From contig OX597819.1 in assembly GCA_951406725.2 (NCBI GenBank), positions 11,036,001 through 11,100,000 of the forward strand: a DNA stretch of 64,000 nt, in the 5' to 3' direction. Each line of letters starts with the position of its first letter. Within the stretch, counting starts at the first letter, position 1. The position numbers and the translations under genes were made by a program. The notes beneath the pieces were generated by a model. That model did not search any database. It was not told the DNA's origin and worked only from the letters and a program-made list of their open reading frames with translations. This stretch comes from Octopus vulgaris. Taxonomy: Eukaryota. Shown here one piece after another: positions 55,692-64,000 of the stretch.

Positions 55692-56149
55692 GTAAGTTAT
55701 ATATTATCCATCATTTTTTTTAAAAAACCTTTTGTTTATATTGAAACATCTCATTAATAAAAGTATGTCTTTTATACTTTGTTGGGCTTGTTTGTCTAAA
55801 TTTATGGTTCCCAAAATGCAACTGCATCTTTAGACTTAATTAGATTACTAAAGATGAAAGTGAAAATATTACCTAAGAGGTTATAGAATAGCAGCTGTTA
55901 TATCAAGTTAATGTATAGAGTGATTTATTTTATTCATCAGTCACAATGAGAATTTTCTAAACAGTGTTGTAGTTAATAAATTACCTTTCTAAATTACTAT
56001 CAGTCTCCGAAAAGTTGATATCATGGGATCTAGTTAATCAACACTGTTAATTAATGTAACTGGAGTAAAGTAGTAACTGATTATTGAGCCTAAAACAGTT
56101 TCTAAGTCTCTATACAACTTTGAATTGCTAATTTTGCATAATTAAATTT

Positions 56150-56430
56150 GCCAGCGCTGCCCCGACTGGCCTCGTGCCGGTGGCACGTAAAAAACACTAT
56201 CCGTTCATGGCCGTTGCCAGCCTCGCCTGGCACTTTGCCGGTGGCACGTAAAAAGCACCCACTACACTCATGGAGTGGTTGGCGTTAGGAAGGGCATCCA
56301 GCTGTAGAAACATTGCCAGATAAGACTGGAGCCTGGTGCAGCCTTCTGGCTTCCCAGACCCCAGTTGAACCGTCCAACCCATGCTAGCATGGAAAGCGGA
56401 CGCTAAACGATGATGATGATGATGATGATG
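56150..56430 (+). mobile_element. RTE 3' UTR fragment (family D)
   Basis: Ends in (TGA)n. Confidence 0.85.
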
Positions 56431-56650
56431 TTCAATTAAGTAAATCTAAATCTTGTAATCAGATCCCAAATAATTTGAGAAATGAATTGTTGAAATGGTG
56501 AGGTATAAATTTGGATAATTGGAGCTATTGTGATGAACATTGGAACCTTTTTCTCTGGAGCTGTCTGCCGGGTATCAAACAAATTACAGCTTTTTGTTGT
56601 GCAGTACACAGTGGTATTGTACAATGGAGCTACTAATGAAGCCAAAGTGT

Positions 56651-57042
56651 GAAGGCGCAATGGCCCAGTGGTTAGGGCAGCGGACTCGCGGTCATAGGAT
56701 CGCGGTTTCGATTCCCAGACCGGGCGTTGTGAGTGTTTATTGAGCGAAAACACCTAAAGCTCCACGAGGCTCCGGCAGGGGATGGTGGTGATCCCTGCTG
56801 TACTCTTTCACCACAACTTTCTCTCACTCTTACTTCCTGTTTCTGTTGTACCTGTATTTCAAAGGGCCGGCCTTGTCACTCTCTGTGTCACGCTGAATAT
56901 CCCCGAGAACTACGTTAAGGGTACACGTGTCTGTGGAGTGCTCAGCCACTTACACGTTAATTTCACGAGCAGGCTGTTCCATTGATTCGGATCAACCGGA
57001 ACCCTCGGCGTCGTAACCGACGGAGTGCTTCCATCCATCCAT
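56651..57042 (+). mobile_element. SINE family B
   Basis: Full-length; TSD TAATGAAGCCAAA. Confidence 0.9.
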
Positions 57043-57500
57043 AATGAAGCCAAAAATTTTGAATCTACACTTGTGGAGTGATGTTGACAAAAAGTTAGTT
57101 TTTACAGTGAGAGTAGGAAGATGGAGGTTCCATGATGAGATTGACTAGAAGCAAAGGAACTGCAAATCAGGTATTCATGTATGAGTGGGGCAAAATTTGG
57201 GAAAGATTGGAAATGTAGTTAAATCAACATGGAGAAACTGAATGTTGTGACATGTTGCATGCTGGAGAAGTTGAGTGGTAGAGTAGAAGGTGAATTGAAC
57301 ACAGTTGGTGGATGGGCTATAGTGGACAATGGTTTAGGACCTGAGCCTTTTTGCACATTGTTAATCCAGGAGGTTTGAAGGAAATATATATAGGTACTTT
57401 TGAGAATATGAAAATACGTTCTTTTATAGAAAATGTCTATCTGCGTGTGTCTGTGTGTGAATTATTTTCAAGAATTTTCTCTCCTATGGTAATTTTCCAG

Positions 57501-57620
57501 ATATAAATGAATGTGCTAAAGGAAATGGTGGCTGCCAACATAACTGTCTCAATTCAGTTGGAAGCTACAAATGTTCCTGTAAATCAGGATACCAGCTTCT
57601 GAACAACAAACAGTGCTCTG
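57501..57620 (+). CDS. Host exon: calcium-binding EGF repeat
   Basis: CCAG acceptor, GTGAGT donor, 120 nt, phase 1-1; DINECAKGNGGCQHNCLNSVGSYKCSCKSGYQLLNNKQCS. Confidence 0.95.
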
Positions 57621-57854
57621 GTGAGTGTACCTCTAATTTTGGAATGATCTTAGTTGACAGATGTCATCATATTTATGAAAATAGTTTGAATGATTGTGTG
57701 TTTGAGTGTGTGAGTGTGTGTGTGTGGGGGGCATGTGTGTATGGGAATGTGTGTGGTATCTATATCATTACCGTTGTCATTTAATAATCCCTGTTCCATG
57801 TTTCCATGTGTCACACAGTATTCGCTGAAGCAGATTTTCTATGGCTAGATATAA

Positions 57855-58494
57855 CAAAAGGCCTCTCTCTCAGAGTGAAAAGCAGATTGTTTGATGCCTG
57901 TGTGTGAACAGCAATGCTACATGGCAGTGAAACATGGACTATGAAAGCTAAGGTCATGCATAGGCTTGAAAGAAATGAAGCCAGCATACTTCACTGGATG
58001 TGCCATGTCAGTGTGCATGTTTGACAGAGTGTAAGCATCTTGAGAGAAAAGTTAGACAGTTGTAGTGTGCAAGAGAGATGACTGTGTTGGTATGGTTATG
58101 TGATGTATATGGACGAGGACAGCTGTGTAAAGAAGTGTCAATCTCTAATTGTGGAGGGAACCTGTGATAGAAGTAGACATGGAACGAAGTGGAGAAGCAT
58201 GATCTTCAAACTTTGAGCCTCATAGAGACAATGACTAATAACCAAGAACCTTTAGCAATGTGCTGTCCTTGAGAGGACCTGTCAAACCAAGTGCACCCAT
58301 GCTGGTGGCATGTAAAAGCACCCATTACACTCTCAGGGTGGTTGGCATTAAGAAGGGTATCCAGCTGTAGAAAACCATGTTAAATCAGACTGGAGTCTGA
58401 TGCAGCCTTCCAGTGTAACAGCCCAGTCAAACTGTCCAACCCATGCCAGCATAGACAACGGACGTTAAATGACGATGATGATGATGATGATGGT

Positions 58495-58495
<1 letters not shown>
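57855..58495 (+). mobile_element. Older degenerate RTE LINE 3' end
   Basis: Homologous to 61760-62754 with stops; (TGA)n tail. Confidence 0.85.
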
Positions 58496-58522
<27 letters not shown>

Positions 58523-58526
<4 letters not shown>

Positions 58527-59072
58527 TGAAAAATAGGATAAAATCTTTATTTATCAAGTAGTTAACATGAAAAACCTCATAAGGTAAAAACCTATCAATT
58601 TTTCCTCTTAAATATATTTATTTATTTATTGAGGGCATTACTATACATAAATGCCACATGCTAGGAGGGACTCTTAAAGTCAAAACTACCAAAATGAATA
58701 AACATTGTACCGAATTCGAGGGAATGCAACTCTCGAAGCGAGCCTTTTAAAAACAGAATTCAGCTGCATATCATATGATTTCATAATTAGTGCACAAATG
58801 CACTTTTTAATCTTCAGTGCAAGCATAATTCAAGATACATAGAGAATGAACAAAAATCAACATACCCGACGAACACCAAGAGGTATCCAGCGTAGTATAC
58901 AGAATTGTTCATCCTTATATATCTATGTAAAAGGTGGCTTTTTTTTAGAATTGCATCTCGGTACAACGTGCAGTCCTTCGTATTCGGTACAATGTGTTTA
59001 TTTAATTTGGTAGTTTTGACTTTAAGAGTCCCTCCTAGTGTGTGGCATTTATGTATAGTAATGCCCTCAATA
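58523..59072 (-). mobile_element. Fold-back hammerhead element family H6 in (TA)n
   Basis: Arms from 58627 and to 59072; tail 58523-58626; right arm lacks the ribozyme segment. Confidence 0.75.
58763..58824 (-). ncRNA. Type-I hammerhead ribozyme motif, CUGAAGA core
   Basis: Minus strand GCTTGCA-CTGAAGA-T TAA AA AGTGCA TTTG TGCACT AA TTA T-GAAA-TCATATGA-TA-TGCAGC. Confidence 0.8.
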
Positions 59073-59076
59073 TATA

Positions 59077-59440
59077 TTCCTTGTCCTGTCTTTTACTGCT
59101 TATATTTTGTACTGTCGTTACTGTCCTGTTTTTGTTACCATTTTTACCCCTCTGCAAAAAGATCTCAAATTTTATTTGATTTGCTTTTCACAGGAAGGAA
59201 AGTTTCTATCGAAGATACGTCTCGCCTTCACCTTTGAAACGTAGAGTAGATGAAACCATGGCGACTGAAGAAGGGTTTTTTTCCTTGTGTTATTTGTCAT
59301 GTACTCTATTTTTTTGTTGTTTAAGTAAAATCTCTAGTTCCTTGGGTTTGTGTCATGTTTTCGTTTCTCATTGTTTTCGACGTTTTTTTGGTGTCCTGTA
59401 CTCATATATGTGTGTATATATACATCTAGAGGTAGGTACG
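59077..59440 (+). mobile_element. Probable pLTR-like element with degenerate hammerhead (59202-59256)
   Basis: GTTTC..TCGAAGA...GAAAC....GTA..GAAAC; TA-rich flanks. Confidence 0.35.
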
Positions 59441-59536
59441 TACATATATGTATATATATATGCATATGTTTTATTTATTAATAAATTATATATATATATG
59501 TGTGTGTGTGTGTGGGTACATATATATATATATATA

Positions 59537-60062
59537 CATTTGCACAAATGAGTTGAGATGGCTTTTCGAGGGGATAATTTTTGTTTTAATCTTAATGATA
59601 ATTTTTACTCTGAGTTACTCTGTTATGAGTTTCAAGCTTCAGAGTAGCCATTTTCACACTGCAAAAAAAGGGGTTTGACTGGTTGCTTAACTAGCAAAAG
59701 ATTTTCTTATAAGTATACATGCCAAAAATTATACACAAAAAGGGAAAAGAAAAACTAATAAATAAATAATATAAAAAATAGAAATAAAATAAAAATTAAT
59801 TTTTTAAAAAATTTTTATTATTTTTTATTTTCCCTTTTTGTATGTATACTTATAAGAAGATCTTTTGCTATTTAAGCAATCAGTACAACATATTTTTCAG
59901 TTTGAAAATGACTACTTTGAAGATTGAAACTCATAGAGTAACTCAGTGTAAAGATTATTATTAAGATTAAAATAAAAATTATCCCTCAAAAAGCCATCTC
60001 AACTCATTTGTGCAAATGGATATAATACTGTACCAAGTATTTTCTCTTTACTATTCTACTAC

Positions 60063-60063
<1 letters not shown>
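59537..60063 (+). mobile_element. Fold-back element family H7 in (TA)n with hammerhead remnant
   Basis: Arms span 59537-60018, tail to 60063; (C/T)TGAAG(A/C)-TT-GAAACTC..GAGTA in both arms. Confidence 0.75.
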
Positions 60064-60113
<50 letters not shown>

Positions 60114-60114
<1 letters not shown>

Positions 60115-60201
60115 TTTATTTAAATAAAGCATATTACTCTACTACTGGTATTTGAGTACTCTTTTTTTCCACCTTGTTTCACATTTATGTGTTTACTCCG
60201 G
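60114..60201 (+). mobile_element. Family H1 copy with collapsed hairpin
   Basis: 16-bp palindrome CTTTATTTAAATAAAG plus tail matching 2216-2286; (TA)n flanks. Confidence 0.85.
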
Positions 60202-60344
60202 TATATATATATATATATATATATATCTATATATATATAAACAAATATATATAATCAATATATATAAACATCAGCATCCATTTTCTATGCTGACATGGGT
60301 TGGATGGTTTGACTGAGAACTGGTAAGCCAGGGAGTTGCACCAC

Positions 60345-60623
60345 CAGTGCCACTTGACTGGTGTCCGTGTCAGTGACATGTAAAAAGCACCAACTGATCA
60401 TAGCCGTTTGCCAGCCTCCTCTGGCCCCTGTGCTGGTGGCACGTAAAAAGCACCCACTACACTCATGGAGTGTTTGGCATTAGGAAGGTCATCCAGCTGC
60501 AGAAACACTGCCAGATCAGACTGGAGCCTGGCGCAGCCTCCTGGCTTCCCAGACCCCAGTCGTACTGTCCAATCCATGTTAGCAGGGAAAACGGACGTTA
60601 AACGATGATGATGATGATGATGA
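60345..60623 (+). mobile_element. RTE 3' UTR fragment (family D), next to a short inverted copy at 60268-60344
   Basis: Ends in (TGA)n. Confidence 0.8.
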
Positions 60624-60773
60624 TATATATATATATATATATACATACATACAGTAATCCCACAACTGTTATTGTGTTACATTCCAAAAACCCCTGTGAT
60701 AGGTGAAAATCCGCAAAGTAAAAACTACTCTACTGTATGTTTATTTTATTATTTTCATAATTTGTATATATTT

Positions 60774-61093
60774 ATTTAAGAAACACACAAAAGCCGTTTG
60801 ATTCACTTCAACATTTAAGTTTAATTTGTCAAAATATTTTCGTCACTATAAGACCGCGACCTGTTCACTGACAAAAATTCGTGCTGCACGGATGCAGCAC
60901 AGATTTTTGTCTGTGAACAGGTTGCGGTCTTAAAGTGACGAAAATATTTTGATAAATTAAACTTAAATGTTGAAGTGAATAGAAGGCTTTTGTGTGTTTC
61001 TTAAATGGCTTACAAACACCTTCCACGCTGCAATTGTTTTCGTTCCAGCACACGATCTCAGATCAAATCACTCGCTATGCAAGTACATCTCCG
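60774..61093 (+). mobile_element. Fold-back hammerhead element family H8
   Basis: Near-perfect palindrome 60774-61006, tail 61007-61093, TATATATTT on both flanks. Confidence 0.8.
60825..60875 (-). ncRNA. Variant hammerhead motif with G3-C8 core (GUGAACA)
   Basis: Minus strand TTTGTCA-GTGAACA-G GTCGC..GTGAC-GAAA-ATAT-TT-TGACAAA; second copy at 60906-60956 (+). Confidence 0.65.
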
Positions 61094-61159
61094 TAATATA
61101 TATTTATTCTATTATAAAAAACAACACAATGGAGGAAATGACATAAGCTTAAATAATAC

Positions 61160-62754
61160 ACAGAAGAATTCAAAGTAGAGGTTGGGGTCCACCAGGGTTC
61201 AGTACTCAGCCCCCTCCTATTTATCATAGTCCTCCAAGCAATTACGGAGGAATTCAAGACAGGTTGCCCCTGGGAGCTTGCTCTAATTGCTGAGTCACTA
61301 TCAGAACTGGAGGAGAAGTTCCAGGTGTGGAAGGAGGGTTTAGAATCGAGGGGCCTTAGAGTCAACCTAGCTAAAACCAAAGTACTAATAAGTAGGAAGG
61401 TAGACAATCCACAAATGTCTTCAGGAAGATGGCACTGCTCGATCTGTAGAAAAGGTGTAGGTAGAAACTCTATAAGATGTACCCAGTGTAAGCTATGGAC
61501 ACATAAGAGGTGCAGCAATGTCAAAGGTAGGCTAACTGGGAAGATAGTTTTTGTATGTGGCAGATGCTTGGGAGCATTAACCTCCAAAAATCTGCAGAAA
61601 ACAACTTCCGTCACTTTCCAGGGGGAAAAACTAGAAGTAGTTGATAGCTTCCGTTATCTAGGTGACCAAGTCAGTAGTGGGGGTGGGTGCATTGAAAGTG
61701 TAACTGCTAGAATAAGAATAGCCTGGGCAAAGTTTAGGGAGCTCTTACCTCTGCTGGTGACTAAAGGCCTCTCGCTCAGAGTAAAAGGCAGACTGTATGA
61801 TGTATGTGTACGAACAGCCATACTACATGGCAGTGAAACATGGGCCATGACTGCTGAGAACATGCGTAAACTCGTGAGGAATGAAGCCAGAATGCTCCGA
61901 TGGATGTGTAATGTCAGTGTACATACTCGACAGAGCGTTAGTACCTTGAGAGAAATGTTGTACCTAAGAAGCATCAGTTGTGGTGTGCAAGAAAGACGAT
62001 TGCACTGGTATGGTCATGTGGCGAGAATGGATGAAGATAGGTGTGTGAAAAAGTGCCAATCCCTAGCAGTTGAGGGAACCCGTGGAAGAGGTAGACCCAG
62101 GAAAACCTGGGACGAGGTGGTGAAGCACAACCTTCGAACTTTAGGCCTCACTGAGGAAATGACCGGCGACCGAGACCTTTGGAAATATGCTGTACGTGAG
62201 AAGACCAGGCAGGACAAGTGAGCCCAGCCCATTTATGCATGCCTTTCCTCCCTTGGACACAAAGACCTGTTGAGGCAAGTGAAGTCGATATCGAACCTCA
62301 TCCGACGACAGGCACCTATGGCAACCCCCCCTTTGCTTGCGAAAACCTGTTGGGGCAAGTGAAATCGAAATCGAAATCGAAATTGACCAATCCTATGACT
62401 GGCATCCAGCAGATGCCAGGACCCCTGGACTGGTGGTACGTAAAAAGCACTATCCGAATCATGGCCGATGCCAGCGCCGCCTCGACTGGCTTCTGTGCCG
62501 GTGGCACGTAAATTGCACCAATCCGACCGTGGTCGTTGCCAGCCTTGCCTGGCACCTGTGCGGGTGGCACGTAAAAAGCACCCACTACACTCACGGAGTG
62601 GTTGGCATTAGGAAGGGCATCCAGCTGTAGAAACATTGCCAGATAAGACTGGAGCCTGGTGCAGCCTTCTGGCTTCCCAGACCCCCGGTCGAACCATCCA
62701 ACCCATGCTAGCATGGAGAACGGACGTTAAACAATGATGATGATGATGATGATG
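61160..62754 (+). mobile_element. 5'-truncated RTE LINE with PHD-like insert and repeat-containing 3' UTR (source of family D)
   Basis: GVHQGSVLSPLLF; ORF 61325..62221 with C-x2-C...WTHKRC, FRYLG, LHGSETW, RGRGRPRKTW; YADD motif deleted; (TGA)n tail. Confidence 0.92.
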
Positions 62755-62820
62755 AATAAACCGTGATAGGTAAACCACAATATGGTGAGGGATTTCTGTA
62801 TATATATATATGTATGTATA

Positions 62821-63074
62821 GAGTGTTAGAAGTGGGGTAACAGATATTGAATATTGGGAAAAGAGGAAGTCGCCAGAATTTTGGAAAGAGAATTTTTTTA
62901 TTTAGTCATTATTATTAGCACTTCCATTCATTTTTCAAACTTGTCAAATAAAATTTTTTTGTACATTGACAAAAAAAATTTTATATGACAAGTTCAAAAA
63001 ATGAACAAAACTGCTAATAATAATGACTAAATAAAAAAATTCTCTTTCCAAAATTCTGTGACCTCCTTTCTTCT

Positions 63075-63080
<6 letters not shown>
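62821..63080 (-). mobile_element. Fold-back element H9 in (TA)n, no ribozyme visible
   Basis: Arms about 62851-62962 / 62969-63080; short one-sided tail 62821-62850. Confidence 0.65.
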
Positions 63081-63105
<25 letters not shown>

Positions 63106-63106
<1 letters not shown>

Positions 63107-63462
63107 CGGACTCGTGGTCATAGGATCGCGGTTTTGATTCCCAGACCGGGCGTTGTGAGTGTTTATTGAGCGAAAGCACCTAAAGCTCCACGAGGCTCTG
63201 GCAGGGATGGTGGTGATCCCTGCTGTACTCTTTCACCACAACTTTCTCTCACTCTTACTTCCTGTTTCTGTTGTACCTGTATTTCAAAGGGCCGGCCTTG
63301 TCACTCTCTGTGTCACGCTGAATATCCCCGAGAACTACGTTAAGGGTACACGTGTCTGTGGAGTGCTCAGCCACTTACACGTTAATTTCACGAGCAGGCT
63401 GTTCCGTTGATTCGGATCAACCGGAACCCTCGTCGTCGTAACTGACGGAGTGCTTCCATCCA
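63106..63462 (+). mobile_element. SINE family B, 5' truncated
   Basis: Family B body and tail. Confidence 0.9.
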
Positions 63463-63811
63463 TATATATATATATATATATCACCCAAACTATTGGATGT
63501 TGTTATATACTGCTGATCACAAAGTGCTTCCAATTCTTTCTTGAATGCACCTTTCTTGCCATATTGGGTCAAATTATTTAACTAAATTCTCATCATTTTG
63601 GAAACCTTTCAAGTGGCTTTTTCTGTTTTCTTTAATACCACTTGGCAACTAGACACATCAGTTACTTGTCTGTCGACCTTGACTCATGTCTAGCTCAGCA
63701 GAACTTGTGCTTTTGCTATTCTGAGGCCACATCATTTCATTCACTTGCTTTATTCTCAAATTACCTCATTTCACATAAGCTCTTCCATACATATATCTAA
63801 AAATTATTTAC

Positions 63812-63967
63812 GTGGCTGTGTGGCAAGTAGCTTGTTTACCAACCACATGGTTCTGGGTTCAGTCCCACTGCGTGGCACCTTGGGCAGGTGTCTTCTACTA
63901 TAGCCTCGGGCCGACCAAAGCCTTGTGAGTGGATTTGGTAGACGGAAACTGAAAGAAGCCCGTCGTA

Positions 63968-64000
<33 letters not shown>
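63812..64000 (+). mobile_element. SINE family A, cut by window end
   Basis: Family A head and body. Confidence 0.9.

Follow-up and report, generated by a model that had tools for sequence, protein, structure and literature searches.

The stretch of Octopus vulgaris DNA analysed here (the window; 64,000 nt, contig OX597819.1, positions 11,036,001 to 11,100,000) raises the question of what a hammerhead ribozyme motif with its core pair reversed is doing in an animal genome. In both arms of a small inverted repeat (Table 1), GTGAACA stands in place of CTGANGA, so that G3 and C8 occupy the positions of C3 and G8. Such a motif could be a ribozyme that still cuts RNA, a fold kept for some other purpose, or a dead remnant, and we consider each of these below.

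Locus structure

The reversed motif reported by the earlier note is present in both arms. A pattern combining the core, the stem-loop and GAAAATATTTT matched the window twice and matched none of 100 shuffles. The two arms form a 99-nt inverted repeat, 89% complementary and spaced 4 nt apart, and positions 60774-61096 hold two short fragments from the end of a Penelope-like retroelement, inverted relative to each other. Both arms are copies of one master; their evidence is not independent, and treating them as two cases counts one event twice.

Table 1. Features of the inverted pair of terminal repeats, in window coordinates
Feature	Position	Strand	Basis or remark
Left arm: inverted, truncated terminal repeat (pLTR) copy of a Penelope-like family	60774..60888	-	same sequence about 1 kb behind intact ORFs elsewhere
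Stem I 5' strand, left arm, TTTGTCA	60869..60875	-	fold
Core positions 3-9, left arm (G3 = 60868, C8 = 60863)	60862..60868	-	pattern match
Extra G at 60861, following A9; next to it stem II of 5 bp with a loop of 9 nt	60842..60861	-	fold and covariation rows
Stem II strands, left arm	60860-60856 / 60846-60842	-	5 bp
G12-A13-A14, minimal palindromic stem III AATATTT (60838-60832), U17 = 60832	60832..60841	-	
Predicted cut, left arm	between 60832 and 60831		placed by standard hammerhead numbering
Stem I 3' strand, left arm, TGACAAA	60825..60831	-	fold
Junction of the inverted arms, where family copies most often have their 5' end (~22 nt upstream of core position 3)	60889..60892	.	likely transcription start
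Right arm: pLTR copy to the family's longer 3' end, then TA repeats	60891..61096	+	
Right-arm hammerhead, decayed (core at 60913-60919, stem I interrupted at 60912 and at 60953)	60906..60956	+	
Likely element ORF, first ~30 codons, inside the pLTR	61005..61096	+	weak N-terminus match

Hammerhead numbering is the standard one and was matched to Cervera and de la Pena 2014 (PMC4209133). The type I layout that had been described around both cores stands for the left arm, with its 7-bp stem I and 5-bp stem II, and fails for the right, where A>T at 60912 and C>T at 60953 abolish the perfect stem I, with loss of the pair adjoining the core, and stem II contains two G-U pairs. Stems I and II make up the minimum free energy fold of the left arm, with a z-score of -1.77 and 11 of 200 shuffles equally good, so the fold alone is not significant; for the right arm the hammerhead was not obtained as a fold (z 0.0). 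Whichever strand of the locus is transcribed, the predicted RNA fold is a hairpin about 100 bp long (-145 to -155 kcal/mol). Because this hairpin would bury the core on either strand, the copy at the locus is likely sequestered and inert, as far as the modelled folding indicates.

An Rfam scan of positions 56000-64000 returned no hammerhead up to an E-value of 10, which fits the suggestion that searches using the canonical core would miss this family. The best matches in the same interval were microRNA precursor models, far under their cut-offs, and the long hairpin explains them. We rejected an identity of the arms as a MITE or microRNA, as they are the ends of an RT/GIY-YIG element. We likewise rejected the arms as a hammerhead dimer, since one transcript would carry one sense and one antisense copy and fold to a hairpin.

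Other repeats lie nearby. Directly after the element, a frame of 354 aa that carries RVT_1 and a PHD-like finger (61157-62221, +) is the 3' part of an unrelated LINE, which we take to be RTE-like. A SINE-like repeat with an (ATG)n end occurs in four copies spaced 2.06-2.13 kb apart (56233-56451, 58314-58518, 60428-60646 and 62556-62774), and further AT-rich inverted repeats of 50-100 nt, some of them nested, lie at 58623-59076, 59665-59897, 59531-60024 and 62874-63058.

Host element

The arms belong to a large family of repeats with the hallmarks of Penelope-like elements. Arm sequence yielded at least 1,860 candidates in the 2.8-Gb genome, and an exact 26-mer from the arm matched 4,548 times. 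Family copies have one of two alternative 3' ends followed by TA repeats, a variable 5' end, and are often arranged as inverted pairs. Copies of 170-225 nt behave as a short non-autonomous element. Upstream of copies elsewhere in the genome we found frames that encode a GIY-YIG domain and a zinc linker, the longest of 1025 aa (P0001), and at five loci (L094, L095, L096, L111 and L112) the hammerhead motif lies about 1 kb behind an ORF of 646-1025 aa. P0001 carries a YVDD reverse transcriptase (RT) motif, a GIY-YIG domain at 25.4 bits against a cut-off of 22.6 and, between RT and endonuclease, the CX2-5CxxC zinc linker in the form CQSNCAVC. Pfam RVT_1 did not match P0001, yet a 57% relative carries the name RT-domain protein. 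A pseudo-LTR with hammerhead, inverted truncated copies, a variable tail and TA targets are all present in the family; we note that the single-ORF RT/GIY-YIG features come from copies elsewhere, the window holding the end repeat only.

The order of RT, zinc linker and C-terminal GIY-YIG is that of Neptune-type Penelope-like elements, and the zinc linker is common to the Neptune and Nematis clades (Craig 2021, PMC8557442, in its available part). By its sequence features we therefore place the element with the Neptune type, or else Nematis, the relatives compared being unnamed elements only. It resembles the described members of these clades in layout, in inverted 5'-truncated copies, in an optional tail and in microsatellite targets, and differs from them in the ribozyme core only (PMC8557442). 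The translation of 61005..61096 is identical at 10 of 25 residues to the N-terminus of the 1312-aa ORF of a sister family (E 0.006, a weak match), and the motif lies about 90-100 nt before this likely ORF start.

The 3-8 pair across the family

G3-C8 is the consensus of the family, as the earlier note had proposed checking. When positions 3 and 8 were left free in a 21-letter pattern, 5,975 of 6,144 genome-wide matches had G3 (169 did not), and among the 100 G3 matches listed, C8 was found in 96, G8 in two and T8 in two. Forty distinct copies were chosen on downstream sequence only, and all 34 of those spanning the core had G3 and C8. In contigs from four public runs, labelled as organisms B, C, D and E, no other core letter reached 5%, a result that speaks for presence only. 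The motif has U4, G5 and A6, A9, G12, A13 and A14, the A15.1-U16.1 pair and H17; the literal C3 and G8 are replaced by G3 and C8 across the family, and Watson-Crick complementarity between positions 3 and 8 is kept. We note that uniformity among copies reflects their master and is by itself no evidence of selection.

A revertant subfamily was rejected: C3 was present in ten of the 100 non-G3 matches listed, all with C8 and none with G8. Four of these 100 had A3 with T8, a pairing combination that may reflect chance transitions or a small subfamily.

Origin of the swap and selection on the fold

Sister families and more distant relatives retain the usual pair. One sister family, with a 1312-aa ORF 54% identical to that of the G3-C8 family and nearly identical to a protein named from Octopus vulgaris, has a C3-G8 motif in the same place before the ORF start. 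Genome-wide, the C3-G8 pattern had 5,788 matches versus 68 for a reversed control and revealed further families, one of which shares A7, U17 and the ends of stem I with the G3-C8 family. Among metagenome relatives, most of whose contigs end too early, the motif was found in two of 31 loci and in none on the control strand. C3-G8 is the state in both, and one of them also has U17 and a palindromic stem III. In a midpoint-rooted tree the two relatives branch outside the clade formed by both octopus ORF families (100/99), one of these relatives on a long branch. Because the sister families and these two outlying relatives keep C3-G8, the G3-C8 state is likely derived from it.

Paired positions vary together between families. 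In ten hand-picked copies from four families, positions 3 and 8 were paired in all ten (CG in six, GC in four), six pairs were changed on both sides, and stems I, II and III carried compensatory changes between families. Covariation was 0.335 versus 0.179 +/- 0.030, above all 500 shuffles and all slid controls, with shuffles that ignore relatedness. The 3-8 swap within this pattern is one evolutionary event, and on these comparisons a compensatory swap is its most likely explanation.

An older subfamily offers a second comparison within the G3-C8 lineage. With the young family left out, the G3-C8 pattern had 356 matches against 220 for the control. These older relatives differ in their loops and have position 7 occupied by C or U, so that only N7 varies in the core among G3-C8 lineages (A, C or U). 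One older subfamily had G3 in 32 of 38 rows and C8 in 32 of 38, four junction rows being counted. Majority letters by column, taken over 25 young and 34 old copies, agreed at every position of the stem I 5' strand (5/5), core (7/7), stem II (11/11) and GAAA (4/4), at 4/8 in loop II and at 39/56 downstream (70% flank identity). This comparison leaves out the rows for stem III (4/7) and the stem I 3' strand (2/5), which are put off by a 2-nt deletion, and its contrast between core and flank is biased upward, as the older subfamily was reached via the G3-C8 pattern. Together, the aligned copies support selection for the hammerhead fold. The earlier note had read selection for function from the double change, seen in both arms; sister families, outgroups and the older subfamily support a compensatory swap and selection for the fold, and the appeal to both arms falls away because they represent one event.

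A change of the core has also occurred in a sister family. In the young sister family with intact 1312-aa ORFs, C stands at position 9 in about 61 of the 100 C3-G8 matches listed. Copies with A9C adjoin intact 1312-aa ORFs (e.g. L097:6884-6935, +, and L098), and older copies keep A9. This genome thus holds A9C as another natural variant of the core, in an active sister family that tolerates such a change. A canonical-core motif with a shorter stem II was seen at G000:C1:21123823, 21239466 and 22204370, as three identical copies among the 100 matches listed.

These patterns bear on a neutral origin, in which two unrelated mutations struck a dead hammerhead in a single master copy that was then amplified with the element. 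Such a history would agree with a single event whose state was inherited by copies without selection, with single changes at 3 and 8 among copies that resemble plain decay, and with A9C in the sister family. It accounts poorly for two transversions exactly at paired positions with the other core positions unchanged, for a core and stems that stayed the same while flanks fell to 70% and loop II changed, and for stems that covary between families, and we consider it highly improbable.

Comparison with published hammerheads

The octopus motif resembles published Penelope hammerheads in most respects other than the 3-8 pair. We counted 53 C3, three U3 and no G3 among the 56 metazoan Penelope motifs listed in Fig. 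S3 of Cervera and de la Pena 2014 (PMC4209133), a list that contains no cephalopod. Minimal type I hammerheads of metazoan pLTRs share with the octopus motif the type I topology, the tiny stem III (palindromic in the young octopus family), an extra base between 9 and 10.1, G10.1-C11.1, and an occurrence as opposite-strand pairs in mostly truncated copies. The UUU triplet with its U17 and the extra G, described by the earlier note as unusual, turn out to be largely ordinary: 24 of the 56 have U17 (one, a Crassostrea example, with UUU), and 54 have an extra base after A9, which is G in one. In the available part of that paper, the extra base and the palindrome are named features of the class and U3-A8 is a natural variant.

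A close natural parallel is U3-A8, found in the Cercyon elements of Schistosoma (PMC4209133; Perreault 2011, PMC3088659, both in their available parts). It too is a natural compensatory change at 3 and 8 that the standard descriptor overlooks, and it occurs in large Penelope families; there two transitions gave U-A, whereas in octopus two transversions reversed the pair.

A close experimental parallel is the Anolis element PAc, in which the same double change, C3G/G8C, was engineered and partly restored cleavage by a hammerhead that needs the element's protein (Frangieh 2024, PMC11167929, available part). In PAc, as in the octopus element, the hammerhead lies close to the start of the ORF, targets are AT-rich, copies end at either of two 3' ends and uncut RNA is inserted. 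In contrast, the swap is natural and fixed in octopus, and the ORF starts inside stem II in PAc but ~90 nt after the core in octopus. G8C alone lowers the rate 10^5-fold (PMC8495972, available part), and a G3-C8 variant was described, as 'data not shown', to be more active with G17 than with C17 (PMC3884650, available part). A natural G3-C8 hammerhead was not found in a literature search of mostly non-subscription papers; Lünse 2017, on small Penelope hammerhead variants, may hold some.

Copy ends and predicted cleavage

If the motif cuts, new copies might begin at the cut, and most do not. Copies begin 20-26 nt before the core in 23 of 40 cases, about four of these lengthened by an inverted arm. 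Ten of 14 copies that start there without upstream flank have G where the element has C or T, an untemplated base that would be expected if a capped start was copied. None of these 40 copies, some of them selected with a pattern that extends across the cut, started at the predicted cut, and by eye 3-4 of 100 did. Because copies start mostly at the likely transcription start, we conclude that most new copies derive from uncut RNA.

When junctions close to the predicted cut were sought, 183 matches came up. Among the first 100 listed, 94 rows were analysed, with 31 dropped as point or indel mutants and 14 reassigned by hand. Ten of 52 junctions at offsets 1-13 fell exactly at the predicted cut (p 0.006 versus uniform, 0.06 versus neighbours), an excess that microhomology with TA repeats and stem I can explain and that we take as a hint only.

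The 5' ends cluster at an AG of the flank resembling both an initiator and a 3' splice site (60889-60892; loci L144-L203), and the flank upstream likewise resembles a 3' splice site, with branch point, pyrimidines and AG. No splice joint was found in contigs of the four runs (organisms B, C, D and E), searched with a short reference, and the variability of what precedes the common 5' end speaks against a first exon that is fixed.

Predominance of uncut RNA as template is compatible with a hammerhead fold kept as a structural or protein-binding RNA element, serving folding, packaging or translation control without useful cutting. Amplification of the sister family despite A9C points the same way, as do findings on the Anolis element, in which uncut RNA is the main insertion template, mutating the hammerhead left in vitro insertion unaffected and RNA ending at the cut was not detected (PMC11167929, available part); non-cleavage roles are also left open by Cervera and de la Pena (PMC4209133, available part). 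This reading does not explain why G5, A6, G12, A13 and A14 with a free N7 follow the pattern of a catalytic core across lineages, why the swap preserves exactly the pair that the active state needs, or the small junction excess at the cut. We regard it as unlikely, if well short of negligible.

The opposite reading, that cutting in the cell is efficient, would have the short capped leader removed and the 5'-OH product translated or decayed, with only an uncut minority transposing. The motif does lie between the likely transcription start and the likely ORF start, and for type I hammerheads in the 5' UTRs of viruses a role in initiating translation is reported (PMC13725137, available part). Efficient cutting is hard to reconcile with the partial rescue by G3-C8, with minimal Penelope hammerheads cutting poorly even as dimers (PMC4209133, available part), or with a motif in which a loop-loop contact was not identified, and we consider it improbable.

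Proposed mechanism and significance

With modest confidence, we favour slow and conditional cutting: the motif of this Neptune-type end repeat would have a fold under selection, with G3 paired to C8, and would cut RNA after U17 at a slow rate, either in dimeric form or together with the ORF protein, the copy at this locus being predicted to be inert. G3 would pair with C8 as C3 does with G8, and the 2-bp palindromic stem III would need a partner RNA. U17, already present in C3-G8 relatives, may have permitted the swap because C17 would trap G3. The RNA probably starts ~22 nt before the core. A cut at the 5' repeat would remove a short capped leader and one at the 3' repeat the start of reverse transcription; a slow, conditional ribozyme would therefore be favoured, with new copies made mostly from RNA that escaped the cut. 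Several points count against this mechanism. By analogy with the engineered variant, rescue by G3-C8 may be only partial; the sister family's A9C suggests from its sequence that a changed core is tolerated; and the intermolecular stem III is predicted to be weak (-2.0 kcal/mol), being palindromic in the young family and imperfect in older copies and sisters.

More tentatively, the octopus clade may be the first natural lineage of hammerheads with a reversed 3-8 pair: old and thousands strong, with an active G3-C8 ribozyme that arose from a U17 background, slowed to a rate at which RNA that stays uncut can transpose while cleaved RNA cannot, and forming a hidden class missed by canonical searches. 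G3-C8 would supply the missing natural covariation for the tertiary pair of the active hammerhead, otherwise in print as a laboratory rescue. The ~6,000 motifs that escape standard descriptors in one genome bear on claims of Penelope clades lacking hammerheads, and the C3-G8, G3-C8 and A9C families of this genome form a natural series on whether Penelope hammerheads must cut.

At L046:1591-1637, A>G differences (with one T>C) reached 6-20% in two runs guessed to be RNA and stayed below 1% in two large runs. These differences fit A-to-I editing of inverted pairs, but the runs come from different organisms.
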